DNA of 58,806 bases, filler included, from Dirinaria sp. TL-2023a (Eukaryota): assembly GCA_051941275.1 (NCBI GenBank). It is 8 parts of 8 records of this genome, joined end to end, with 100 filler letters (N's around TTAATTAATTAA, not from the genome) between each part and the next. Parts side by side here need not be neighbours in the genome. Positions count along the whole stretch, not along the records: positions 7,385 to 14,665 come from JAVEBF010001331.1; 7 more parts are not named here. One strand, written 5' to 3'. A program made the position numbers and the translations under genes. The notes under the pieces were generated by a model. That model saw only the letters and a program-made list of their open reading frames with translations, had not been told where the DNA came from and searched no databases. Positions 7,285-48,198 of the stretch are shown piece after piece. Within the stretch, counting starts at the first letter, position 1, and each line of letters opens with the position of its first letter.

Positions 7285-7384
7285 NNNNNNNNNNNNNNNN
7301 NNNNNNNNNNNNNNNNNNNNNNNNNNNNTTAATTAATTAANNNNNNNNNNNNNNNNNNNNNNNNNNNNNNNNNNNNNNNNNNNN
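7285..7384. other. Artificial contig spacer (44N-TTAATTAATTAA-44N); identical spacers at 14666-14765, 22039-22138, 29411-29510, 36763-36862, 44114-44213, 51464-51563
   Basis: Seven identical 100-bp spacers whose palindromic core puts TAA in all six frames. The intervening contigs decrease monotonically in length. Confidence 0.98.
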
Positions 7385-7644
7385 CTCGAAATTTTCGAAA
7401 CGAAAGCACGAACTGATTCACTTCTCGAGAACTCTCAAAAGATTCAATATGAGCGTCAGCATCAAATTAAATGAAAACGAGATGAAAATCAAGTTCGACA
7501 TCAGAGTGTTTGAAGTGCAGCTGAACTCAAAACTGCGATGAAGATCACATCTGCGTGAGATTGAGACGAAACTCGTCGTGAGATACAAAGTCACACAGAT
7601 AATTATCGACTTCACATGAGGTTCGACAATGGCAGCAAGCAAGC
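7385..7644 (+). mobile_element. Hypermutated Tad1-like LINE fragment (RT C-terminal region)
   Basis: Translates as KHELIHFSRTLKRFNMSVSIKL...DIRVFEVQLNSKLR*RSHLREIE...FT*GS, matching the fungal LINE pattern KYELIHF...IRVLGVQLDSKLRWGPH...STWG with Gly/Trp/Pro mutated. Confidence 0.8.
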
Positions 7645-7940: not shown

Positions 7941-8038
7941 CCACATAACCTAGCTAGTACTTGATTTCCATAAGGAACTTCTTACTAGCATAACAATTCT
8001 AATTACTCTCCTCCTAAGGGTGGTGATCCGTATACAGT

Positions 8039-9361
8039 ATGGTAGAAACAACCCGACAAGGACGTGTCGCGTCGCGGTCTGCAAGTGTGCGTGATTTGAG
8101 CGAGCAGCTAGGCGAGAATCAGCAACATGAAGATGTTCTAGGCGAGGTGATAAATACATCGCATGAAGATGCACCACCCCGCGACCCTGCCTCTAATGGT
8201 CGATCCCCTGCCACCTTGACGGCTTTGGACGCACAATTGGCACAAGTCATACGCGAACGCGATGAGCTTCGGACGAAGAAGATGGAACTTCAAAGGATCC
8301 AGGTAGAAATTAAATCTCTAAAACAAGCCGCGACAAATCTGCAAGCCGCTGTTGACACGACGTCGGGCCGAGGTGAAGGCGACGACGTTGAGGTCGTCCC
8401 CGAATCCGAAGTTGGGGCGAGAATTGCCCGAGGGATAAAACGTACCCACGATGATGCTTATGTGACCACGGCCCGATGTATAAAACCAAAGGATTTGGAA
8501 TTGTACAAGGGCAAGAGCATCAAGGAATTTACGAATTGGGCCGACAGCGCAGAGACTGCGTTTCGTTTATCCCCTGCTTATTTTCCCACCAGGCAAGATA
8601 AGGTGTTGTGGACCATGCAGTTTTTGGATGGCGAACCTCGTGATCTTTGGTATCGCTATGAAAAAGAACACTCCGATGCGTTAGATAGCTGGGAGTTCTT
8701 TAAAACCTTTCTTTTAAATCTGGTTGAGGACCCTGTCAACCGAAATTTGCATTATATACAATCGTATAATGATGCAAAGCAGGGTGCTAATCAAACCGCT
8801 CAGAGCTTCGATTCTTATTTGAAAGGATTAGAAGCACATATCCCGGAACCGACCCAGGAACAGTTGTGTTCGAATTACTTTGCGAAATTGCGACCGGAAT
8901 TAAGGACCAGTATTGGGAATTATGAAGTAATTCCTGATACTCGAGCAAGGATGGTCGCTTTGGCCGCCCGGCTAGAACGGAATAATCATCCTAAGATTGG
9001 AACGTCGTTCAATCGCAAGGAGAGAGACGACTCCTCACGAGGTTCTAACCAGGGCCAGTCAAAATTTAGGTCGTCCGGCAAAGGCAAAGAAAAGAGGGGT
9101 CAGGGTTCTGAGAATGGTTCTGGCGGGAGACAGTCGAATAAGTGGCAAAAGACCACTTCTTCCGATTTCAGGGGCTCGGGTGCTAGTCGGCATTCCAATG
9201 TGGAATGTTACGAATGCCATAAGAGAGGGCATATAGCACCTAATTGCCCGGAGAGAAAAAATCCCAACAAAACACCTGTGGGTTCCGTGGAAACGACAAA
9301 AAACGACAAGGCCGTGTCGAAGAGTCGCCGACGAAACGACGGCCCGAAGTCGACTCGATGA
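8039..9361 (+). CDS. gag: Retrotransposon Gag (capsid-like domain plus CCHC zinc knuckle)
   Basis: 440-aa ORF with a coiled-coil N-terminus, a retrotransposon-gag-like core (QDKVLWTMQFLDGEPRDLW) and CYECHKRGHIAPNC. Confidence 0.92.
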   Translation: MVETTRQGRVASRSASVRDLSEQLGENQQHEDVLGEVINTSHEDAPPRDPASNGRSPATLTALDAQLAQVIRERDELRTKKMELQRIQVEIKSLKQAATNLQAAVDTTSGRGEGDDVEVVPESEVGARIARGIKRTHDDAYVTTARCIKPKDLELYKGKSIKEFTNWADSAETAFRLSPAYFPTRQDKVLWTMQFLDGEPRDLWYRYEKEHSDALDSWEFFKTFLLNLVEDPVNRNLHYIQSYNDAKQGANQTAQSFDSYLKGLEAHIPEPTQEQLCSNYFAKLRPELRTSIGNYEVIPDTRARMVALAARLERNNHPKIGTSFNRKERDDSSRGSNQGQSKFRSSGKGKEKRGQGSENGSGGRQSNKWQKTTSSDFRGSGASRHSNVECYECHKRGHIAPNCPERKNPNKTPVGSVETTKNDKAVSKSRRRNDGPKSTR

Positions 9362-12300
9362 AAGCTCCGACCCAAACGGGTGAAGTGCTTCTGAAGGAAG
9401 ATGTTATCTTCACTGAAGTTACTTTTGATACAGGAGCTGAAATCAACGTTGTAAGCCAGCATTTCGCTTTGGAGCATAATCTGACGGAGGTGAACGTTGA
9501 ACTTCCCCAACCAAAATGGATGGATGGCGACAATACGCATTGTTATGGCGCCTATTCGGTTCATTATCGGCTCACCGATGACTGGGGAGTGACTCGTGAT
9601 AGTGAGAGAATTTTCTATGCACTAAACAAGGAGGGTCCTCCATTAGTATTAGGAAGACCAGGTCTTCATGCAGAAGGCATCAAAATTGATAATGGAAACC
9701 TTGTTTGGCGTTTTGGTATTAATCGAAACGCTTTTGAAGTCCAGACCCCGGAGCAATTTGCAATGTCATTGCAAGCGCAGGATTATGTTTATGCCCTTCT
9801 AATTGTTGATGTGGCCCAGGAGAAACCCCGTGTTGGTGCTGTTCGAAATGATAGCGAAAGCGCAACGTCTGCTCTCAGTACAGTGTTATCCGACTTTGCG
9901 GATGTATTCTCGGAGCAGGAGGCTGGAAGATTACCCGAACACAAGGCTACTGATCATGCCATTGAAACTGAGGGTCCTCCGCCTCATGGTCCTCTCTACA
10001 ATCTGTCGACCAACGAGTTGGCAGCGCTGAGAAGCTATTTAGACGACGGGTTGGCGAAAGGATGGATTCGACACTCTACAAGTCCAGCTGGGGCTCCAAT
10101 CCTCTTTGTGCCTAAGAAGGATGGTGGATTGCGCCTATGCGTGGACTATAGAGGTTTAAATAAAGTCACCATCAAAAATCGTCACCCTCTTCCTTTGATC
10201 ACTGAAACTCTGGATCGCCTCTGCGGGTCTAAATGTTTTTCTAAGATTGACCTCAGAGATGCTTACCATCGAATTCGAATTAGGAGAGGCGACGAGTGGA
10301 AAACGGCTTTTCGTACACGTTACGGTCACTTTGAGTATTTGGTTATGCCATTTGGTTTGGCCAATGCCCCGGCAACCTTTCAATCCTATATCAATAAGGC
10401 TTTAGCCGGGCTAGTGGATCGTTTCTGTGTTGTATATCTGGATGATATTCTTATATTTTCTGAATCCCGCGAGCAGAACGTTCTGCACGTTCGTGAGATC
10501 CTGTCCAGATTGCGTCAATTCCAACTCTTCGCGAAACTTTCAAAATGTCAGTTTTTCACTACTAAAGTTGAATTTCTTGGATTTATTATTTCAATCGATG
10601 GTATAGCGATGGATCCGAGTCGGGTAACAATGATCAAGGAGTGGCCCGTCCCTAAAAGCTTTAGAGATGTCCAAGTTTTCCTAGGCTTTGCAAATTTTTA
10701 TCGAAGGTTCATACATGAATACAGCCGTATTGCTTCTCCCTTAACAGGATTACTTCAAGGTAGTCAGAGTGGAGTTAAGCATGAACCATTCGAATGGCCA
10801 GTCGAGGCAGAACGAGCGTTCATACACTTGCGCGACGCCTTTACGACAGCCCCTATCCTTCTCCACTTCGACCCTAATTTAAAGAGCCGTATGGAGACGG
10901 ATTCTTCTAATTTTGCTCTTGCTGGAATTCTTTCTCAATTGCAGGAATCCGGCAGATGGCATCCTATTGCCTTTTGGTCTCGGAAAATGACGCCCGCAGA
11001 GCGTAGATACGAGACCTATGATCAAGAATTATTAGCCATCGTCATGGCTTTTAAACAATGGAGACATTACGTCGAGGGTAGTGTTTTTCCAGTTGAGGTC
11101 TTAACAGATCATAATAATCTTCGCGGATTTATGAATGTTAAAGAACTGAACCCTCGACAAGCCCGTTGGGCAATGAAGTTGGCGTCTTATGACTTTGTTA
11201 TACAGCATCGATCGAGGAAAACCAATTCTGCAGATGCGCCGTCTAGGCGATCGGACTATGAAGAGTCCAAGGCAGAGATGAAACCTCTGCTGCCAACTTT
11301 ACAGAGCAAGCTCTCTATGCTAGGGATGCTGCTAGAGAAGGGGACGCCCTTGCTGCGGAAGGCATGCTTGAATGCATCTCCGCAATTGAGACTTGGGAAA
11401 TCTCAATCAAGAGCCGCAACTCTTGAAAGTAGTAGCAGTGAAATGCCTACTTATACCCACTGCGGCAGCGTGTTGCTAAGTAAGTCCGCTGGAACTATTG
11501 GTTGCAAACAATTCGTTCCACGCGTTGTAGTTGCAGAGTTAACTACACGCGAAACGGTATATGACCCTACGTCAAACTCAATTGTTGAAGTGATTAAGGC
11601 GCTGCAACAAGACGATTCTCTTGTCCAGCGCTATAAAAATCCCAACAGTCGACAAAGACGAAGTGGCCACACCGGAAAGGCGCAAGGTTGGCGCTTTGAC
11701 AGCGATGATGTCTTGCGACATAAGGAAGCTGTCTATGTCCCAAACGAGTCTTCTATTAGAGAAGAACTCCTAAAGAGGTATCATGATGATCCTCTGGCGG
11801 GGCATTTTGGGGTGCAGAAGACTTACGAGTTACTTGGTCGTAAATTCTTCTGGCACGGTATGATTAATGATGTTAAGGCATATGTAAATACGTGTGACAT
11901 ATGCCAGCACATTAAGGTCCCTCGGCATAAACCTTATGGCGAATTAACATCATTACCGCAACCCAAAGGTCCATGGCAGGAAATCACGATGGATTTCATC
12001 ACCGGCTTACCGCCAAGTAAGCACCATGGACAAATTTATGATGCGTGTCTTGTGGTCGTGGACAGATATACGAAAATGTCAATGTATATCCCCACAACAA
12101 AGAAGGTCACTGCAGTACAACTAGCGGAAATCTTTTGGGAGAAAATTATTCCTCGTTATGGAACTCCCAAAGGTATTGTTTCAGACCGTGGCTCTGTATT
12201 TACGAGTGCGTTTTGGTCAGAAATATGCTATTATTCGAATATTAAACGCCGACTCAGCACTGCTTTTCATCCTCAAACGGACGGTCAAACCGAGCGGCAA

Positions 12301-13185
12301 AATCAGACTCTGGAACATTACTTACGAGCTTTTTGTAATGACCGACAAAGGGATTGGGCCATGCTATTGCCTCTGGCCGAATTTTCCTATAATAACAGTA
12401 TTCATGCTTCGCTGGGTTGTAGCCCTTTCTTTGCTATGTACGGGTACAATCCTCAAATCCAATATGACGCCGAGGACGACGCCAAAGAAGGAGAGGTACC
12501 CGCAGCAAAAGAAAGAATTAAAAGCATTCAAGAAATTCGCGAAGCACTGTCTACTCGTTGGGCTAACGTTGTGAAGACGCAAGTCAAATATTATAATCAG
12601 CATCATGAACCTCGACAATTTAAGGTTGGAGACTTGGTGAAACTTTCTACCAAGAATCTTAAATTGAAAAATCCAAGTAAGAAATTGTCGCCCAAATTTG
12701 CAGGGCCTTTTAGAATAAAGGAGCCTTTGGGAACGCAAGCCTACAAACTTCATTTACCTGCTGTCTATAGCCGATTACATCCTGTTTTCCATGTTTCCTA
12801 TCTGGAGCCATATCATCGTCGAGAAGGTGATGACTCTATTCCCGAATTAACTCTACCTGAATTGGTAGACGACGAGGAAGAGTATGAAGTGGAACAGATA
12901 TTGGGGAGGCAACAACGTGGGCAGGAAATCTGGTATAAGGTTAAATGGAAAGGCTGGCCCAAAGAATATGACGAGTGGATCCCTGAATCAAATATGGGAA
13001 ATACATCGGACCTAATCCGAATATACGAAGGGTCTGCGAACACTAAACGCCGACGAATCGCCAAAAGAAAGTCGGATGGTTTCTCTTCTTTCGAAAAGCA
13101 AAGCGCGTCAGCAACAAGACGTCCTAAAGAAAGAAGAGCGACAAGTGCACTGCGACGTAGCACTAGGAATAAACCAGTGAGATGA
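9244..13185 (+). CDS. pol: Pol polyprotein (protease, RT, RNase H, integrase, chromodomain), in the -1 frame relative to gag
   Basis: Motifs: FDTGAEINVVS (protease); LRLCVDYRGLN, MPFGLANAPATFQ, YLDDIL (RT); ETDSSNFALAGILSQ, TDHNNL (RNase H); HDDPLAGH...CDIC, MDFITGLP, SDRG, DGQTERQNQ (integrase); EYEVEQIL...YKVKWKGWPKEYDEW (chromodomain). Uninterrupted 1313 codons. Confidence 0.97.
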   Translation: MPGEKKSQQNTCGFRGNDKKRQGRVEESPTKRRPEVDSMKAPTQTGEVLLKEDVIFTEVTFDTGAEINVVSQHFALEHNLTEVNVELPQPKWMDGDNTHCYGAYSVHYRLTDDWGVTRDSERIFYALNKEGPPLVLGRPGLHAEGIKIDNGNLVWRFGINRNAFEVQTPEQFAMSLQAQDYVYALLIVDVAQEKPRVGAVRNDSESATSALSTVLSDFADVFSEQEAGRLPEHKATDHAIETEGPPPHGPLYNLSTNELAALRSYLDDGLAKGWIRHSTSPAGAPILFVPKKDGGLRLCVDYRGLNKVTIKNRHPLPLITETLDRLCGSKCFSKIDLRDAYHRIRIRRGDEWKTAFRTRYGHFEYLVMPFGLANAPATFQSYINKALAGLVDRFCVVYLDDILIFSESREQNVLHVREILSRLRQFQLFAKLSKCQFFTTKVEFLGFIISIDGIAMDPSRVTMIKEWPVPKSFRDVQVFLGFANFYRRFIHEYSRIASPLTGLLQGSQSGVKHEPFEWPVEAERAFIHLRDAFTTAPILLHFDPNLKSRMETDSSNFALAGILSQLQESGRWHPIAFWSRKMTPAERRYETYDQELLAIVMAFKQWRHYVEGSVFPVEVLTDHNNLRGFMNVKELNPRQARWAMKLASYDFVIQHRSRKTNSADAPSRRSDYEESKAEMKPLLPTLQSKLSMLGMLLEKGTPLLRKACLNASPQLRLGKSQSRAATLESSSSEMPTYTHCGSVLLSKSAGTIGCKQFVPRVVVAELTTRETVYDPTSNSIVEVIKALQQDDSLVQRYKNPNSRQRRSGHTGKAQGWRFDSDDVLRHKEAVYVPNESSIREELLKRYHDDPLAGHFGVQKTYELLGRKFFWHGMINDVKAYVNTCDICQHIKVPRHKPYGELTSLPQPKGPWQEITMDFITGLPPSKHHGQIYDACLVVVDRYTKMSMYIPTTKKVTAVQLAEIFWEKIIPRYGTPKGIVSDRGSVFTSAFWSEICYYSNIKRRLSTAFHPQTDGQTERQNQTLEHYLRAFCNDRQRDWAMLLPLAEFSYNNSIHASLGCSPFFAMYGYNPQIQYDAEDDAKEGEVPAAKERIKSIQEIREALSTRWANVVKTQVKYYNQHHEPRQFKVGDLVKLSTKNLKLKNPSKKLSPKFAGPFRIKEPLGTQAYKLHLPAVYSRLHPVFHVSYLEPYHRREGDDSIPELTLPELVDDEEEYEVEQILGRQQRGQEIWYKVKWKGWPKEYDEWIPESNMGNTSDLIRIYEGSANTKRRRIAKRKSDGFSSFEKQSASATRRPKERRATSALRRSTRNKPVR
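9298..9356 (+). promoter_or_regulatory. -1 programmed ribosomal frameshift signal (slippery heptamer plus predicted pseudoknot)
   Basis: A_AAA_AAC at 9298-9304 is in the gag frame, followed by a 5-nt spacer. GGCCGT (9310-9315) pairs with ACGGCC (9339-9344), and loop GAGTCG (9322-9327) pairs with CGACTC (9351-9356). Confidence 0.8.
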
Positions 13186-14665: not shown

Positions 14666-15556
14666 NNNNNNNNNNNNNNNNNNNNNNNNNNNNNNNNNNN
14701 NNNNNNNNNTTAATTAATTAANNNNNNNNNNNNNNNNNNNNNNNNNNNNNNNNNNNNNNNNNNNNTGGGCCTTTGGTGCAGACCCAGCGTTAGATTAACT
14801 CTCTCCATAGTTTAAATACGATTTCGAAAAGGTCCCCCGTGCACTCATGAATGATGAAATCAGGATCTCAGACGATTAGAACGCTAGAAATGAAGCTAGA
14901 GAGTGGGGATGGTCAATGATAAGAGCCTAGCGGCGTCATATCGAAGTAGAATCATCATATGAGAATAACTTAACGATGCCGTGCCTAATCATGGCTTACT
15001 AGTGAGGCTCGCCCGGGAAGGGAGTAACCGTGGGTGGCCGACTAGAGGTCGATCTTGGTAGATGGCACATCCTACCTAGAAGTCAACCTTAGATGGCTTA
15101 AATCGACATGTCTGAAGTTGGCTTCTACTGGACGAACTCACCCGTGCCTATCGCAAAGTCCCTGCGTAAGCCAACCACCAACCGACGCGCCCTCTTTACC
15201 CACGTTCAGTAAAACAAAGCTCCCATTGGCGCCTAGGAAAGGCAGAATGTCCATGAACGCCCGGTTTGTGTGCAGCCCACCTACAGGGTAGCGCAGTTGG
15301 TCGATATTGTCGATATTGGAAGCGATTCGCACAACCCCATTGCTGCACTGGATCAGCCCAGTCTTCCCATCATTCAAAGTCCTGGGCAATGCAAAGCCAT
15401 TGATCCATGGAGGGCTCCCTCAAAGTTTCAGCAATAGAGCTGGCGATAGACGCGTAGGATCCAAAAATCGTCTCGACAGCCACGTTCACAGAACTTTCCG
15501 ATTAGAGATGGTTTCAGATCACTGTTGTAAGATGGGAGCCACTGGCGTCACACCAC

Positions 15557-22038: not shown

Positions 22039-22384
22039 NNNNNNNNNNNNNNNNNNNNNNNNNNNNNNNNNNNNNNNNNNNNTTAATTAATTAANNNNNN
22101 NNNNNNNNNNNNNNNNNNNNNNNNNNNNNNNNNNNNNNTAGATCTCCTCTACGAAATAGCTAACGTCTATACATTCAAGGCAAAAAGCTCATAGAAGTGT
22201 CATACTCAATGGTACGGTCACATTAGGCAATGTTTTATTACTCGAGGATACGGCCTACTGGGGAATGTTCGGGGACTGAAGATGCGCTTATTTTACGATA
22301 TGGTTCCCTAGGAGCTATCCTTGACTGTTACTTTATAGACATGCTACGTTGGACTACCTGAGCCCGATCAACAAGCTGCGAGCA

Positions 22385-28870: not shown

Positions 28871-29510
28871 TTGATGAGGTTCTGATATTCCTCGACTGGA
28901 TAACTAGCTTTCTTTTGAAAAAAAAAAAAAAAAAAAAAAAAAAACCCCCATTCTCCGCATTAAACTACCTTAGCCTTCAAACAAACGTAGCCATCAACAA
29001 ACCCTACCTTATCCTAAACTTCATAGCCTTTTACACGAGCATATGTTTAGCATAGATGACTTTTAGTGTCATGCCGTTTATGATATACCTCTTCCCCCTG
29101 TATGCAGGAGGTATATTATAAATTGCACTATCTACGCCACGTCACCTTGCAAAATATCCTACCCTCCCTGCTGCTCACCACCTCATCGCCGTCATCCCGA
29201 TCTATCTGTCTATCTATCTAATCTCACCGTCGCACCTCGTTGTCGCGATCAATACGATAAACCTCTTCAAGTGCCATACGCTGAAAGCATACATTACCTT
29301 AACGAGTTGATTCTAGACCCACCTTGCTTCATTGCCTCTCAGTAGCGCGGCCATCAGCGCAATAGTATGTTTGTGCTTCCATCGACGCTTCATCAGAGCT
29401 AGGATCGATGNNNNNNNNNNNNNNNNNNNNNNNNNNNNNNNNNNNNNNNNNNNNTTAATTAATTAANNNNNNNNNNNNNNNNNNNNNNNNNNNNNNNNNN
29501 NNNNNNNNNN

Positions 29511-29552
<42 letters not shown>

Positions 29553-36738: not shown

Positions 36739-36902
36739 CCTCCACTTCATAATCGCCCTTCCNNNNNNNNNNNNNNNNNNNNNNNNNNNNNNNNNNNNNN
36801 NNNNNNTTAATTAATTAANNNNNNNNNNNNNNNNNNNNNNNNNNNNNNNNNNNNNNNNNNNNCTATCCCACCCTTTCCCCACCCCATGATGAATTAATAC
36901 AT

Positions 36903-39719
36903 CTAATGATCACTCTCGAAAAAATCCATAACCGCCTTACTCCCTCTCGCCCCGAGCCCATGCGGCGGATAGCAAATAAAAACCGGATCCTCCTCCGCAC
37001 CGAGCTTCTGCCTGAACTCGCTCTTCTGCGTCAGTTTGAACTCGGCCGCGAGGGTCTGGTACATGCGCTGCAGCGTCTTGACCCGGATCCCGCCCATGTT
37101 GTGCACGGCGTGCAGCTTGTTCGTGGCCGCGGCCCCGAACGTCATGTTCCGCGTCCCCGCCGCCGCGGCGGCTTTGATGGCGTGCAGGGTGATGTACTCG
37201 ATCGTCCCCGACGGGGCTTGTGCGAAATCGAGTGAGTACTTGACTTGGTAGCCGTGGCTGAGGGAGAGCTGCGTGAGCACGACGATTGCACAGATGGTGC
37301 CGTGAACGTCTTGGGCGTAGTAATATCGGCGATGTTGGTAATCTCGCCATGGATTAATCTCCGAGATATGCACTTGGGGACCTTTCCGGCCGGCGAGCCA
37401 TTCGGCAATGCGCTTGTCGACCTTGTCGCGGATTTCCTGAGGTGGCTCTTCGCCTTCGGGCAAGTCATGGATTTTCACGCCTTCTTTTTCGGCGTGGCGG
37501 ACTTTCCGCCCGACATCGTGATCAGTCTCCGCAGGGTTTTGCTCAGGGTGCACGCGCTGCTCTGCCGCGCAGGTGAACGTTTTCCAGCCAAATTGGGCGC
37601 CGAGGACTTCTTCCAATTCGTGACCACCTAGCACGTGGATAGGATGCAGATGGGTCTCCTTCTTGAGCCATTTCAGAAACGCGGTCATGATCTTGGTGTA
37701 CTGGCTCGGATCGCATAGAGGGTTCCCGGGTATGATGGCGTAGTCCTTGTTCGTCGGTACATAGGCAACCGCTGCTCCAGTCTCGGGATGTCGCCAAATC
37801 AAGTATCTGTCGTCGGTCCATGAGGTATTTGTGGCATCGCCGTAATTGGCAATGAGATTCTCCAAAGGCTGCATCTGCTCTTCGGTAACCTTTTGGTGAA
37901 CAACCCAAGGCGGCGTAAGGGTGCTATCCGCTGGATGGCGCAGGTTCGAGGATGGCTTCGCCGGTAGCGATTTCGGGTCTCGGTGAAACAGGGAGGCCAG
38001 ACGTACATTCTCCAACTTAAGCATAAGCATTAGCATCCTTTCGAGCCCTATTCCAGCTCCTGCGTGCGGCGGCGCTCCTAGACGGAAGCCCTCCATATAA
38101 TCGTCCATACTCTCGGGGTCTACACCTTGCGCTTTCATTTGGTCAATCAGCATTTTGTGGTCGTGAATACGTTGCCCACCGGTCAAGATCTCTTGACCCC
38201 GAAGGAACATATCAAATGAGTTTGTCTTGGTGTTGTCCTTCGGATCCGGCATTGTGTAAAAAGGACGTGCGGAGGCGGGAAACTTGTCAAGGACATAGAA
38301 GTCGGTTTTATATTTCTCTTTGACAAGCTGGCCTAGGCGTATCTCATCCCTTGTGTGCAGATCTTCATTGGGGGAGGGAGGATTGCCATCTTCGTCAGTC
38401 CAGCCAGAATCATGCAGCATTTGAACACCCTCAGCAAAAGGTATTACTGGGGTCTCGTCTAGCCAGACTAGATCCTCGTGCGGGAAATGCTGCTTGATGA
38501 CCGCTAGCTCTTTACCGTATCGCTCGTAGACGCCCTTGAATATGTATTTCAACGTCTCCAGTATCATATGCATAGCTTCGTGATAGTGCTCTTCAATGGC
38601 CATCTCAATATCCAGCCCTGTGTACTCGGTCAAATGTCGATGTGTATTACTATTTTCGGCACGGAAAACAGGTCCAATCTCGTAAACTCGCTCAAAATCC
38701 GCGGCAATCGCCATCTGCTTCGCGAGTTGGGGGCTCTGGGCAAGGAACGCTGGCCGGCCGAAGTAGTCGAGTTGGAACACACTGGATCCGGACTCGGTTG
38801 CACCGCCTTGCAACTTGGGCGTATGGATTTCGATGAAGCGTTGTGAATCGAGGAAAGTACGAAATAGGTTGGAGACACCCGAATTAATGCGGAAAAGGGC
38901 CTGCGAACTGGTAGTACGCAGATCGAGGATACGATGGGTCAGACGCAGCCGGTCTGTGATGTTCGAAGCATGTGCGCCTTCTGCAACCTCGCGCTCCTTG
39001 GACACTTCATCTTCGTAGACGGTAAATGGAATTGCCTGGGCTCTGCGAGCAACGACATGGAATTCGCGAATCGCGATTTCGAAGTGGTGAACTGTGCAGC
39101 CTTTGATGGGTTCTTTTGGCCTCTGCAGATGGCCCTTCACCAATATAATCGAACCCGGCACGATGCCTTCAGCCCATTGCACCATGTGCTGTGAAACAAG
39201 ACCCTCCTGCTCTGCCAGCACGCCTTGAATCGTTACCAGCTGTTGACGCAGGACGATGAATGCCAACTTAGGGCTCATCTTCCGGACCGTGTGGATGCGC
39301 GCGCGGAACATGACTTGGTCATTTTCGCTGTGCGAGCTAATTCTGGAGATGTCGCAGCGGTGCTCATGCTTCCATACGGTCGATTGGACCAGTGGCAGAT
39401 CGCCATACCGCTCATTGATGCCATTGGGTTCGTTTTGCCAAGCCCTCTTACGCTCTTGCTCCTTCCGATGACGGATGTCTTCCTCTTTCTCGCGGTTGGC
39501 CTCAACACGAGCCTCATGGCTCCGTCGTTTTTCCTGCTTCCTTTTTTGGTGTTGGGTGAATGGGGTGCCATCGGCGTTGAGGAGATCGTCGCTGTCGGAG
39601 GTGGACGATCGAGATTTCTGGTTAAATGTTTCTGCCAAGGCAAGTCGATGCTTAGCGGCTTGGGAATCCTCACTAAATTTATGGCCGCCCCTTTTGAAGA
39701 TACTCAATGTTTTCTTCAT
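36903..39719 (-). CDS. erdS: Ergosteryl-3beta-O-L-aspartate synthase (AspRS-DUF2156 fusion)
   Basis: 938-aa single ORF. OB-fold (FRARIH...FIVLRQ), AspRS motifs LAQSPQLAKQ, FRAENSNTHRHLTE and GAGIGLER, then a ~350-aa DUF2156/aminoacyl-tRNA-transferase domain (GNPLCDP, APSGTIE, MTFGA, KSEFRQKLG). Confidence 0.93.
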   Translation of the reverse strand: MKKTLSIFKRGGHKFSEDSQAAKHRLALAETFNQKSRSSTSDSDDLLNADGTPFTQHQKRKQEKRRSHEARVEANREKEEDIRHRKEQERKRAWQNEPNGINERYGDLPLVQSTVWKHEHRCDISRISSHSENDQVMFRARIHTVRKMSPKLAFIVLRQQLVTIQGVLAEQEGLVSQHMVQWAEGIVPGSIILVKGHLQRPKEPIKGCTVHHFEIAIREFHVVARRAQAIPFTVYEDEVSKEREVAEGAHASNITDRLRLTHRILDLRTTSSQALFRINSGVSNLFRTFLDSQRFIEIHTPKLQGGATESGSSVFQLDYFGRPAFLAQSPQLAKQMAIAADFERVYEIGPVFRAENSNTHRHLTEYTGLDIEMAIEEHYHEAMHMILETLKYIFKGVYERYGKELAVIKQHFPHEDLVWLDETPVIPFAEGVQMLHDSGWTDEDGNPPSPNEDLHTRDEIRLGQLVKEKYKTDFYVLDKFPASARPFYTMPDPKDNTKTNSFDMFLRGQEILTGGQRIHDHKMLIDQMKAQGVDPESMDDYMEGFRLGAPPHAGAGIGLERMLMLMLKLENVRLASLFHRDPKSLPAKPSSNLRHPADSTLTPPWVVHQKVTEEQMQPLENLIANYGDATNTSWTDDRYLIWRHPETGAAVAYVPTNKDYAIIPGNPLCDPSQYTKIMTAFLKWLKKETHLHPIHVLGGHELEEVLGAQFGWKTFTCAAEQRVHPEQNPAETDHDVGRKVRHAEKEGVKIHDLPEGEEPPQEIRDKVDKRIAEWLAGRKGPQVHISEINPWRDYQHRRYYYAQDVHGTICAIVVLTQLSLSHGYQVKYSLDFAQAPSGTIEYITLHAIKAAAAAGTRNMTFGAAATNKLHAVHNMGGIRVKTLQRMYQTLAAEFKLTQKSEFRQKLGAEEDPVFICYPPHGLGARGSKAVMDFFESDH

Positions 39720-40230
39720 AGCGATCCGATGAATTCTGGCAAGGGAGCTTTTTGCCAGAGGCCAATGGAGACTACCTTACTACAAATATTGACCGTACAC
39801 AATCGGTCCTGCTAATTTATCCTCTGCGTGAACTTCGGAAAGAGCAGGACAACCAACGTCAGAGTGACGTCGGATGCCAATTCTACACACGGAGTTCGTA
39901 CCCGCGGCTTCCGAGTAAAATCCATGTTGCTCAGTAATCCGGGCTTACATACTTTACTGTACCCTACCTACCTCTCATTACACCGAACAGTTCATATTTT
40001 CTACCTTAATAATTCACGCATCGCAACTTCGGACCGTCGGAACCCTAATGCCGAAAGACCGTGTCGAGTCAAAAGGATTCACGTGACGATGTACAAGCTT
40101 GAGGGATATGTCACCGTGTACGGCGTTCATATGCTTATGTAGCTTACATGTACTCGTGATGTCTGGTGATCAGTGAGAGCAGTCTCTACTTCAAGGCACC
40201 ATCCGGACTCGGACCATACAGAGATCCAGT

Positions 40231-43347: not shown

Positions 43348-44213
43348 GGAATTTAACAAATTTTGATAATCTACCAGAAGAGTTTCGTGTGGATTTCATG
43401 GACTCATCCGCTGCAGCGCTACTAATCGGGGACATGATGAAGAAGGGTCTTTGAAAAGGACACGCGAAGCCTGGAAAACATCTATCATAAATCCAAAAAT
43501 GACTACTGGCCAATGCTTCCGCAGCATGGCCACAGCCATTACGCTTTCGGCGCCGATTTTTTAGCTGTTTCTCCTGAGCATCTACTCCCTCCCCTTCCTC
43601 TATCAATGACGTCGATGCTGTTCATCCCGGCATCCGTCCTCCATGTGATGTTATACTGCACTATAACAAATCCTGCTTAAGTTCGAATACCAGAAGTACC
43701 AGGATAGCTCCCAAAGCGTATCAACTATAAACCGGAGCTTGTCTGCCGCTCCCCATAAGGCCCCCGCCTGTATACCACTTGCAGTATTTGCATTCTGTTT
43801 AATTAGCTAGTATCGAGCCCATCTCACGAATTATAAAAATTCTCATGATACGCAAGAATGACTTTGAAACGAAAAAAGGAGAGGGCCTAGATATTTTATT
43901 CTTGGCGGGATCAATGATTCCTAAAGGTACCCTTGACAAAAAGCAGCAATAAATAGGTATTAAATCCCTTTAAGCATAAATATTATTAGATAAGGTGACT
44001 CGATACTTTTTTACTGAAAAAATCCTACGTAGATAAAAGGCGCCCATCACACCACCAAAAAAACAGAAGAAAAGAAAGAAAAAGAAAGAAAAGTGCTCTA
44101 AAATGTTGTACTGNNNNNNNNNNNNNNNNNNNNNNNNNNNNNNNNNNNNNNNNNNNNTTAATTAATTAANNNNNNNNNNNNNNNNNNNNNNNNNNNNNNN
44201 NNNNNNNNNNNNN

Positions 44214-44659: not shown

Positions 44660-46179
44660 TACGATTCTTAGACTGGGTTCATAAAGCGGAGGTGGGAGGC
44701 CTAAAGCAGTGCTTCAAGGTCTACTGAGATCATGAAGACGTTTCTTAAATTTATCAGACCTGAATGAAAGTGTCAGTACAAAAGACTCAACCATAATAGT
44801 GTGCAAGAGTCAGACCCTACTTAAAAGCGATGTGTTGCAGTGTAGGGGTAGCCACTTGTGAAGTTAGACTTGGTGAGGGTGTCTCAGAACGCACACCAAC
44901 GTCACTGAGGCACAGTGAAGGAATATCTACCTTGCAATTGCTGCAGAGTTGCGTCACTCTTGTCGCACAAGGCGCCTAGACCACTGTGTTTGAATGAGAA
45001 TGATGTGCGCGCAAGATCTACCATCCAATATTCAAGATATTAAGTACTACGTCGGAAATATCGAGACTCAGAGTGTGACCACCAGGTGATGTACCACGAT
45101 CTACTTCTTACCCGAAAAATGATCGCTACGAACTATTGTATTGGTTCAATGTGAGATGAAATGATTATGTGAATGGCATTGGCTTCTAGCCTAGCGAATC
45201 GGCTCACGTCAAGATGGTTCATTCTGAAATCGTCAATGTAGATGCGCTTTCTGGAATCACGGCCGAGTTTTGCGAGCCTACTTTGCGAAGAATTTGGAAA
45301 ATGGCGGACGAGCGATGGCACTGTGGAGTTCAAGTGAACTTCGTCTTTCAGAGTGCTGTTCAAGGACACCTTCATTATATCATTTAGCGATGCGCTAGGC
45401 TTTTAGAAAGCTATCATACCAATGATATTTGTCCCGCCCAAAGACAACCATAGAAGCCTTACTACCGTATGCAGTCAACCTCTTTCGAAATAATGAAAAA
45501 GATGTCCTAGTATTACGATTATGTATCAGAATTGGGACCAAATAGAGCGCGCTAAATCTTCGAGCCTTGAATCGGAGCTCGACCGCCTCAAGAGAGAAAA
45601 TATGACGGAGGTGATAGCAAAGGTTTCCTGCGCTTTCTTATATGATGCCAAAAGGTCTCAAAAAGGTTAGATAGTTTCTACTCTGAGAATTTTGATTGAA
45701 GTTTTCCAAACTTCATTGCCAAACGACAGGTAGCAAGAGGTAATAGAATTCGGTAAGGAGATACTGGGTTAGGTTCTACGAGCGCGCCGTTCGGAACGGT
45801 GCCGCTTTGAAAAAAAAAAAAGGAAAAGAAGTCAGACACTTATATTACTTGGTAATTGCGTGATTGCATGGAGACATTGCAAGGTCAAAGCCCGTAAGTT
45901 GGAAAATACTGGCATTTGGACGCTGCTAGCTGCGGAGCGACTTCACCCGCGCCGTTGCCTGATGTGGGGAATATCAAAATCGCTGCGTAGTGCCCTAGAC
46001 CTTGTAAAGTGAGATAGACGGTCGATCGTCGTGGCCAGTTATGACCGAAATTGTGGGAATCAAAAGGATGGAGGATCCAGGATTCGAGCTTCTGCAACCA
46101 AGTGGCATCGGGGATAGTAGCCGACCGGCTGAGCTAAGCGATGCGTGCTGGGCCGCCCCCATCGGTACGATGAGCTGAA

Positions 46180-48198
46180 TGTGGCAAAACGACGGCTGCT
46201 GCATATTCTGCGTCAGAAAAGCATAGACGAGAAGATGGTGGGGTGGATAGAGGCCTTTTTGAGTGACCGCACGACTATATTGAAAACGTGTGAACACGTG
46301 ACAGAGAAAATAGATATATCGGTAGGCATATTGCAGGGGTCGTCGTTATCATCTATACTCTTTCTGTTCTTTATCGCAACACTGCTTGAGAAGCTGAAAA
46401 GCAGAGAGGTATTTACATGCGGCTTCGTCGATGACACAGACATTCTGACATCAGGCAGATAATGCACGCGATATTGCTACCGCAATTGTCATATGGATGC
46501 TCTGCATGGCATAGACCGCAAGGCAAAAAAAACGAGCTCACAAAAGCAGAAATGAAGTGGCTGAAAGATATACAATATAAAGCTGAGAGGGCAATAACGA
46601 AAGCGTTTAAAGCTACGTCAAAGTTAGTTTTACACATAGAAACGCACACGTCATCGATCAAAACAATACTCGACAAAACGGCATACACGATGACAATTCG
46701 AATAGCAACTAGCTCTGTCTATGATCTCATAGTACTACTCAGATCGAAGAAAAAGAACAGAAAAACTAGCTCACTAAAAAAACTGACTCTAGAACTACGA
46801 AAAGAAATGAATATGAAGCTCGATCGAGTCGAGAAGATAGTTCCGTTCGTTGCGACGTCATGATGACGATCGTCGAATGTGAATATACAACAATCAAAAG
46901 AGAAGACGAAGAAGAAACACGAGAATCTGATGAAAGAGATGCAGAATATGATGATATACACAGACGATAACGACATCAATGACAAAATAGAAACCGCTGC
47001 GATAGCGTCAGAGACGACGCGCAGAATTTATCTAAACAAGAAAGAACACTAGACGATGTACTCTGCAGAGCTTTATGAAATCATTCTGATCCTAGCAATG
47101 ACGACGGGGCACATCGACGAAAGAGTCATTATATGCGTGAATAATCAGACCGTCATTAGAGTCATAACAAATCTCAAAACAAAATCAGAGCAGCGATATG
47201 TCGCGTACGCGATATGATTAATAGAGCATCTTCGAAAGCTGGGAATAAAAATAGAACTACACTGAGTATTCGCGCACAAGAGTATTGTCGGCAACGAAGC
47301 AGCAGATATCGCAGTCAAAGAGACAACGAGGTGGAGACGCAAAAGGCAGCGTCGCGGAAAATATATTGAGAAGAACACAAACAACATCGCGAAGCAGGCG
47401 ATAATCTCAGACATATTGAGCAGTTCTTTATGCACTCACATCAAGAAGGTGTTGGAGAAGATGTGAAGCATGCAGTGACAAAAGAGCTGCATAGGAAAAG
47501 CGCTGCGCGATATAGAGTCACGACCAAGAAAGGGAATTTTGAAGCTACACGAAAATCTGACGAAAGCACAGAGCGCAATGACGATGTAGATGAGAACAGA
47601 CAAGATAGATCTTCGTCAATTTCTACATCGCAGAAAGATGTCAGACTTCGATAGCCTCGCATGCGAATGCGGAGAAGAACATCAGATCGTCAAACACGTA
47701 TTGTTTGAATGCAGAAAGTATAGCACGATAAGAAGAGAATACTGAGATATGAAGAAAAAGGAGGCAGCATGGAGGGTACTGAATCTGAAGATACTAACAC
47801 AAACAGTTAGTCTCAAGAAGGTAATTATCTTCATGAAAAATACAGAGCCCCCAGATCAATTTGGGGAGTCAATTATAGAAGAAAACGATATAGAGCATGG
47901 TGCATAGACATCGAGTGCATTGAATCGGCAACTTCTTGCCGCAGGATGAAATAAGAGGTAGGTTCAGAGACGATGATGTCGGATGAAACCGCCTCAAAAG
48001 AAAAACAACAAATTATAGATAAACAAATCGCCAGAAGGACTGCGCGTTTGCAGATTATACGGCTTCATTTTTGAAGCAGATATAAGGAGGCAAAGGTGGG
48101 GTGCTTTTATTGGTTAGATAGTATGACTCATGGCCGCATAGCTAGTCTTGATAGGACGGGCTCCGAGTGCCTAATGACGTAATCAATCAATCAATCAA
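46180..48198 (+). mobile_element. 5'-truncated, internally deleted, hypermutated Tad1-like LINE with RNase H, (AATC)n tail and 14-bp TSD
   Basis: TACGATGAGCTGAA at 46166-46179 and 48199-48212; (AATC)n tail at 48181-48198. RT remnants (GILQGSSLSSILFLFF, GFVDD), RNase H remnants (IYTDD, H*VFAHKSIVGNEAAD) and a zinc knuckle (CECGEEHQIVKHVLFEC). Confidence 0.93.

Follow-up and report, generated by a model that had tools for sequence, protein, structure and literature searches.

The window, by which we mean the whole stretch of 58,806 nt that was analyzed, is made up of eight contigs of 7243-7284 nt, arranged in descending length and joined by identical 100-nt linkers, so that contigs adjoining in the window are not genomic neighbors. 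Its features are as follows.

7285-7384, 14666-14765, 22039-22138, 29411-29510, 36763-36862, 44114-44213, 51464-51563 (no strand): assembly linkers, each 44 N + TTAATTAATTAA + 44 N
7385-7620 (+): tract free of CC and GG, probably hypermutated, in a fragment (RT tail) of a presumed Tad1-like LINE; reading frame from 7386
7386-7643 (+): full detectable extent of the LINE homology around this tract (P0015 residues 725-810, E 1.9e-8)
8027-13185 (+): apparently intact Ty3/gypsy element; gag 8027-9361, pol 9244-13185, with Pfam matches to RT, RNase H, integrase, and chromodomain
46175-46447 (+): second LINE relic, RT part (P0001 residues 601-691, tblastn)
46450-47889 (+): second LINE relic, C-terminal part with RNase H and Cys/His motif (P0001 residues 806-1286, placed by tblastn on 46450-47883)
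46314-47813 (+): depleted core of the second relic (CC 8 versus 52.6 expected; GG 37 versus 77.1 expected)

The mutated element is a non-LTR retrotransposon, which we take to be Tad1-like: its ORF2 homology extends over RT and RNase H and includes the Cys/His motif at the C terminus. The initial annotation had identified the tract in contig 2 as a piece of a LINE, and the homology at 7386-7643 agrees with this: besides P0015, the segment matched P0007 (E 1.8e-7) and residues 722-798 of P0001 (E 3.5e-6), all three E values being those of a search of the short subject only. The fragment is also 65-82% identical to LINE DNA in public contigs (best E 1.5e-11). Pfam gave a weak RVT_1 match (5.6e-6) that falls below the cut-off. 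The linker at 7285-7384 immediately precedes the tract, whose 5' edge is therefore artificial and whose true 5' extent may exceed 236 nt. At the other end, the final ~25 nt of the LINE homology (7620-7643) retain GG, and the mutated tract thus ends slightly inside the end of the homology.

The second relic is truncated at its 5' end and has lost residues 692-805 to an internal deletion at the 46447/46450 junction. Read-through translation of 46447-47850 matched LINE ORF2 proteins, the best being P0001 (E 1.2e-90, 40% identity). The two LINE pieces showed no similarity to each other in a self-BLAST of the window, a null result that says nothing, since the pieces correspond to different stretches of the element with no overlap (approximately residues 722-810 versus 601-691 plus 806-1286). 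The LINE homology in contig 2 ends at about residue 806-810, and the copy in contig 7 resumes at nearly the same point after the deletion of 692-805; this common end point may be a coincidence or a shared breakpoint.

The Ty3/gypsy element lies directly downstream of the tract and is an unmutated internal control. Its gag product (444 aa) has a weak zinc knuckle, and its pol product (1313 aa; Gly 5.6%, Pro 5.7%, Trp 1.7%) has RT, RNase H, integrase, SH3, and chromodomain regions. An LTR pair was looked for in this contig and none was found. Elsewhere in the window, positions 36903-39776 (-) hold a single open reading frame of 957 aa in which an aspartyl/lysyl-type class II tRNA synthetase is fused to LPG_synthase_C (DUF2156), and its look-alikes are ascomycete aspartate-tRNA ligases with the identical fusion. 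The window also encodes a TRI12-like MFS transporter, and such genes place the window in the Ascomycota. Long poly(A) runs, which could be retroelement tails or assembly break sites, occur at 28918-28947, 29511-29550 (start of contig 5), and 51386-51463 (end of contig 7).

Depletion of CC and GG in the LINE relics

Both CC and GG have been lost in the window, in the direction CC>TC and GG>GA and on both strands, and the loss is confined to transposon relics. It coincides with the two LINE pieces, whereas the observed/expected ratio (O/E) of CC/GG, for which the initial annotation had proposed a comparison, is 1.01 in the gypsy element (8027-13185) and normal in the six remaining contigs (0.88-0.99). 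The tract at 7385-7620 (236 nt; A 89, T 54, G 47, C 46) contains 0 CC and 0 GG where about 18 would be expected, and its first GG stands at 7620-7621, in agreement with the absence of both dinucleotides that had been noted for 7385-7619. Shuffled versions of the tract had a mean CC+GG count of 17.9 (sd 3.5, minimum 5), and zero was reached in 0 of 20,000 shuffles. Under an i.i.d. model that takes its composition from the tract, P was 5.2e-8, or 0.003 once multiplied by all window positions, and a first-order Markov model of the window gave P = 3.6e-11. No other CC/GG-free run in the window is as long. The three that follow it in length, of 163, 151, and 122 nt, are all found within the second LINE relic at 46.6-47.7 kb, and elsewhere the maximum is 115 nt.

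The dinucleotides gained in the tract are TC (21 observed versus 10.5 expected) and GA (30 versus 17.7); neither CT (12 versus 10.5) nor AG (18 versus 17.7) is raised. CA (20 versus 17.3), TG (15 versus 10.8), and CG (14 versus 9.2) stand at or above expectation, and the initial statement that they remain abundant was correct. Combined over both strands, the O/E values are 1.81 for TC/GA, 1.06 for CT/AG, 1.25 for CA/TG, and 1.53 for CG. As a separate observation, the tract has far fewer TpA dinucleotides than its composition predicts (5 versus 20.4 expected), and conversion of CC to TC is no explanation for this shortage.

Depletion in the second relic is partial and strand asymmetric (CC O/E ~0.15, GG ~0.48), with O/E values of 1.31 for CG, 1.31 for TC/GA, and 1.06 for CT/AG. 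When the whole window was scanned in 500-nt windows at a 250-nt step, only six had a CC/GG O/E below 0.6, with starts at 46251-47501, and the four starting at 46501-47251 had values of 0.23-0.34. The RT part (46175-46447) is lightly affected and retains GGC, GGG, and TGG codons. The part at 46450-47889 has in-frame TGA at conserved Trp positions (46861, 47263, 47464, and 47476), together with Gly>GAN and Pro>TCN changes. The CC and GG sites that survive in the second relic were examined for extra sequence context, and none was obvious.

In the frame of the first tract, GAA stands at a conserved Gly (7512) and TGA at two conserved Trp positions (7539 and 7617). Of the residue changes described in the initial annotation, Gly>Glu and Trp>TGA are thus present in the tract; Pro>Ser is absent from it and was found in the second relic instead. 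To place such changes against a reference, normal relatives that reach 1050 aa or more and contain over 3% Gly and over 3% Pro were chosen from 156 proteins, 56 in all, and aligned; the window frames were then mapped by HMM onto the columns that are at least 50% conserved in these 56. The window codons are GGN 7, GAN 9, AAN 2, and AGN 1 at the 19 conserved Gly columns, the single AGN being preceded by G; CCN 4, TCN 7, TTN 2, CTC 2, and other or uninterpretable 4 at the 19 conserved Pro columns; and TGG 2, TGA 6, and TAG 0 at the 8 conserved Trp columns. If the 5' C of CpC is mutated, GAN, TCN, and TGA should result, with AGN limited to sites after G and CTN limited to CTC; under the opposite, APOBEC3G-like rule, the outcomes should be AGN, CTN, and TAG. 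In the window, 22 outcomes are specific to the 5'-C rule (GAN 9, TCN 7, TGA 6) and 0 to the opposite one. With no TAG, CTN solely as CTC, and the sole AGN after G, the target is the 5' C of CpC, as had been proposed. CpA and CpG are spared in the window relics, and CGN is kept in 4 of 8 conserved Arg columns of the window.

Dipyrimidine damage of the UV type is expected to target the 3' pyrimidine and to deplete TC. It was rejected as a source of the pattern, since TC is enriched in the relics.

Related public loci and Gly/Pro-free database proteins

Metagenome contigs were scanned with an alignment of the LINE proteins, which gave 601 pattern matches and 307 confirmed relatives, of which the best 80 were kept. 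The signature seen in the window is present in these related public contigs at kilobase scale and at saturation, gypsy sequences included. Among the best 80 of the 307, 74 loci have a whole-locus CC/GG O/E of 0.40 or less (67 of the 74 at 0.07 or less), and the other 6 are normal (0.81-1.02). Pooled over these 74 loci from the best 80 of 307 (474,449 bp), the O/E values are 0.04 for CC, 0.04 for GG, 1.43 for TC, 1.41 for GA, 1.05 for CT, 1.11 for AG, 0.66 for CG, and 0.56 for TA. The longest frames in the same 74 loci are two- to four-fold longer when TGA is read as sense, and in 71 of the 74 TGG, Gly, and Pro codons are all missing from such a frame. Four sources of independent public assemblies carry the signature: ENA, Logan, JGI/IMG, and metagenome contigs.

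At the conserved columns of the public loci (best 80 of 307), where the counts come from related copies and the cells are not independent events, the Trp columns hold TGA 358, TAA 60, and TAG 1 (n = 535), and the Pro columns hold 776 TCN in total. At the Gly columns of these loci, GAN is preceded by A 221, T 118, C 9, and G 0 times, and AGN by G 186, A 51, C 0, and T 0 times; CTN at the Pro columns has C 56, T 50, A 2, and G 5 times as its third base. Alternative end states occur at one and the same column (TTC and CTC, AGA and AAA), which indicates that the copies were mutated separately. Where CC is residual in one copy (128 sites), the majority in the other copies is TC at 74, CC at 23, CT at 17, and TT at 6; the corresponding figures for residual GG (248 sites) are GA 136, GG 42, AG 32, and AA 22.

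Secondary changes were found at CpG and CpA in the public loci (best 80 of 307), with TTG 261 versus TCG 46 and TTA 161 versus TCA 562 at the Pro columns, His>Tyr in 47 of 485, and Gln>stop in 16 of 242. They are absent from the window relics, and the history of the public loci is therefore perhaps related to that of the window relics without being identical to it.

The public tracts have sharp edges, passing from 0 to 37-40 CC+GG per 200 nt. Edges of CC/GG-free, AT-rich blocks (GC 17-35%) lie at ~6400 in L027, ~4800 in L006, ~6400 in L031, and ~4000-4600 in L045; beyond them the sequence is 43-58% GC with normal CC/GG, the switch falling within 200 nt, and L045 has a normal island of ~600 nt within its depleted block. 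At the ends of L059 and L040, where composition is normal, the open reading frames did not look like coding sequence. Inside the CC/GG-free loci there are 30 HSPs to gypsy pol or gag, in both orientations, and the 243 kb of loci unmatched by LINE proteins are themselves depleted (CC O/E 0.06, GG 0.08), so the process is not LINE specific in those organisms.

Several public ORF2-like proteins lack glycine and proline altogether. P0001 (1287 aa), P0003 (1289 aa), and P0004 (880 aa) have 0 Gly, 0 Pro, and 1.6-2.2% Trp, and of the best 150 representatives retrieved with P0004, 10 are Gly/Pro-free and the others are normal in both residues. The best explanation for such proteins is that dead LINE copies, hypermutated at CpC, were annotated as genes with TGA read as Trp, because the long frames in the 74 loci open only on that reading. 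The Trp residues of P0001, which is known as a protein alone, would then correspond to TGA codons, to judge from the loci. The Gly/Pro-free database proteins were sought in the fetched public loci, and none was encoded there at high identity (best 58%).

A comparison of P0006, which is normal in composition (Gly 4.3%, Pro 4.7%), with the Gly/Pro-free P0001 resembles a view of one element before and after the process. The two align without gaps over 1113 aa at 81% identity, with 213 differences, of which 191 are reachable from P0006 to P0001 by C>T or G>A changes and 7 in the reverse direction. The changes include P>S 44, G>E 22, G>D 19, A>V 18, T>I 14, S>F 13, and A>T 13, followed by E>K 9, V>I 8, A>I 7, P>F 6, D>N 5, and G>R 4, a list that agrees with the prediction for CpC targeting. 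A tally of the substitution table puts C>T (~97) and G>A (~86) at about equal numbers. H>Y occurs 1 time and His is kept 38 times, and 41 Gln and 79 Arg are unchanged; with His, Gln, and Arg essentially untouched, this pair shows none of the marks that targeting of CpA or CpG would leave. All 100 of the 100 aligned Gly and Pro residues have been replaced, against 22 non-transition differences, with no indel and no TAA or TAG. Loss on this scale suggests a burst of enzyme-driven hypermutation and not slow decay.

A proposed RIP-type process and its alternatives

We read the tract at 7385-7620 as the relic of a presumed Tad1-like LINE that underwent C>T hypermutation at CC on both strands (CC>TC, GG>GA) through a RIP-type defense, and we place the probability of this reading at roughly 0.7. 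The process converted to T, on either strand, a C that is followed by another C, the change on the other strand being read as GG>GA. It went to saturation in the tract at 7385-7620 and part of the way in the second relic (46175-47889), and it killed the element by turning Gly codons into Asp or Glu codons, Pro codons into Ser, Phe, or Leu codons, and Trp codons into TGA stops. We infer that it acted as a genome defense on duplex, chromosomal, repeated DNA. The enzyme may well have been similar to a C5-cytosine methyltransferase of the RID/Masc1 or DIM-2 type, which is likelier than a deaminase of the AID/APOBEC or DddA kind because the 3' neighbor sets the specificity, as it does in DNA methyltransferases and in RIP; the specificity of AID/APOBEC and DddA deaminases is set by the 5' neighbor.

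RIP is a textbook genome defense of fungi, found in Neurospora crassa and other Pezizomycotina and dependent on RID and DIM-2. The pattern described here resembles it in its dense C:G>T:A transitions on both strands of transposon copies, its sharp edges and AT-enriched blocks, the inactivation of elements by stops and missense changes, and a context set by the 3' neighbor of the mutated C. It differs from RIP of the Neurospora type in that the target is CpC instead of CpA and in the saturation reached in the public loci (CC/GG O/E 0.04 over 474 kb in 74 of the best 80 of 307). The CpA>TpA preference of RIP is seen neither in the tract nor in the core of the second relic, where TpA is not raised and CpA is not lowered. 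By its signature, the process is thus supported as a RIP-like hypermutation and a variant of RIP, lacking the CpA/TpA hallmark, with a trigger and enzyme that may be as proposed above. In basidiomycetes, the RIP-like hypermutation of Microbotryum (Pucciniomycotina) and Rhizoctonia is likewise a non-CpA, context-specific C>T change in fungal transposons. It reportedly targets CpG-containing contexts (TpCpG in Microbotryum and Pucciniomycotina, CpG in Rhizoctonia), unlike the process considered here, since the window relics keep CpG (O/E 1.31-1.53) and Arg is untouched between P0006 and P0001.

The available text of the RIPCAL paper (PMC2621366) describes CpA>TpA as dominant in S. nodorum, N. 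crassa, and P. anserina and CpC>TpC as formally one of four possible RIP types, and genome surveys, according to the available text of PMC7882544, score RIP by TpA/ApT and (CpA+TpG)/(ApC+GpT). The values of these two indices and of the RIPCAL index for the CpC class are given below.

Tract 7385-7620: TpA/ApT 0.25; (CpA+TpG)/(ApC+GpT) 1.35; (CpC+GpG)/(TpC+GpA) 0.00
Core of the second relic: TpA/ApT 0.67; (CpA+TpG)/(ApC+GpT) 1.27; (CpC+GpG)/(TpC+GpA) 0.18
Other contigs: TpA/ApT 0.74; (CpA+TpG)/(ApC+GpT) 1.22; (CpC+GpG)/(TpC+GpA) 0.82

With TpA not raised and CpA not lowered, the classical indices score the relics as unaffected, that is, as "no RIP," and the initial expectation that standard indices would miss the signature is confirmed. 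The RIPCAL ratio (CpC+GpG)/(TpC+GpA) does capture the class found here. In the available passages of PMC2621366, PMC7882544, PMC12774611, and PMC5381539, CpC is mentioned merely as a formal class or as over-represented. A search of the full-text literature for CpC-dominant RIP or hypermutation in fungi found no report; surveys in subscription journals lay outside that search, and a prior description is possible.

A known parallel is editing of retroviral cDNA by APOBEC3G, which shares the CC dinucleotide context and the conversion of retroelement Trp codons to stops. APOBEC3G acts solely on minus-strand cDNA, and there on the 3' C of the pair, so that GG>AG and TGG>TAG result. The changes here are GG>GA and TGG>TGA (TGA:TAG 6:0 at the 8 Trp columns of the window and 358:1 at the 535 of the public loci, best 80 of 307), both strands are affected, and CC on the coding strand is as depleted as GG or more so, all of which bears out the initial distinction from APOBEC3G. 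A broader form of the same idea, in which an AID/APOBEC-like enzyme that deaminates single-stranded DNA acts on the cDNA of retroelements while reverse transcription is under way and the process is retroelement specific and not repeat induced, has in its favor that all affected sequences that could be identified are retroelements (LINEs in the window, LINEs and gypsy in the public loci) and that the second window relic is strand asymmetric. We regard it as improbable nonetheless. The 5' C of CC is mutated under a 3'-neighbor specificity; the tract has lost CC and GG alike, and C>T and G>A are about balanced between P0006 and P0001; the asymmetry of the second relic, where the coding strand is the more depleted (CC 8 of 52.6, GG 37 of 77.1), is the opposite of that left by minus-strand cDNA editing; and whole 7-kb loci are CC/GG-free, including the half without a LINE protein match. 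An equally improbable account dispenses with a dedicated mutator and supposes CpC methylation of heterochromatic repeats followed by slow, spontaneous deamination of 5-methylcytosine. The saturated public loci do lose CpG as well (CG O/E 0.66; TTG 261 versus TCG 46), as decay through methylation predicts, but the window tracts retain it (O/E 1.31-1.53), and the replacement of every aligned Gly and Pro between P0006 and P0001 against 22 non-transition differences in 1113 residues, with no indel, points to a CpC rate that would be hundreds of times the background.

It is very unlikely that the LINE belongs to a naturally CC/GG-poor, active lineage with genuine Gly/Pro-free proteins, even though full-length public "ORF2" entries with 0 Gly, 0 Pro, and normal Trp exist in P0001 and P0003. 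The long frames of the 74 CC/GG-free loci open only if TGA is Trp, and the normal P0006 is 81% identical to P0001 with differences that run in one direction. Nor does the family have an unmutated consensus that is itself free of CC and GG, a case that the initial annotation had raised: conserved Trp positions in the window are in-frame TGA stops, Gly and Pro codons have been replaced, and normal relatives exist. Chance, or an artifact of sequencing or assembly at a contig end, is hardly credible as a source of the tract. The tract does start at the very first base of its contig, but the probability under chance is ~5e-8 (0.003 corrected for all window positions), a like signature lies in mid-contig at 46314-47813 and in the independent public assemblies, and the changes are in-frame substitutions and not homopolymer indels.

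If the RIP-type reading of the LINE relics is right, it need not describe a process at work in this genome now. The adjoining gypsy element is intact with normal CC/GG, so that a general, currently active repeat-induced system is not evident here, and the partial, strand-asymmetric state of the second relic also counts against one. The gypsy element may be young or single copy, or the process may be extinct or sporadic.

The window and the public loci together suggest a wider proposition, which we advance tentatively as falling a little short of an even bet. Some ascomycetes may possess a mutator that turns the 5' C to T wherever CpC occurs in repeated DNA; it would be near absolute in its specificity, would run to saturation, and would leave CC/GG-free blocks of kilobase to multi-kilobase length. 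It would be a natural cytosine deaminase, or a deaminating methyltransferase, and in either case would work on chromosomal repeats and be guided by the +1 base. Being invisible to current RIP indices, it would mean that the spread of "RIP" has been underestimated, and pseudo-proteins free of Gly and Pro would arise as its side effect. A CpC-specific form, if true, would extend the known range of contexts (CpA, CpG, and TpCpG) and would be a repeat mutator able to erase one dinucleotide completely; its enzyme, with a target set by the 3' C, would bear on target choice by RID-type proteins and might have possible use as a base-editing activity. Hypermutation at CpC would also explain a database oddity, the full-length LINE "proteins" without glycine or proline, as an annotation artifact that marks such genomes. 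Those that are Gly/Pro-free or nearly so are P0001, P0003, P0004, P0005, P0037, P0076, P0112, P0127, P0137, and P0144; P0002, P0042, P0130, and P0139 were also counted with the Gly/Pro-free or near-free proteins, whose lengths reach 1289 aa.
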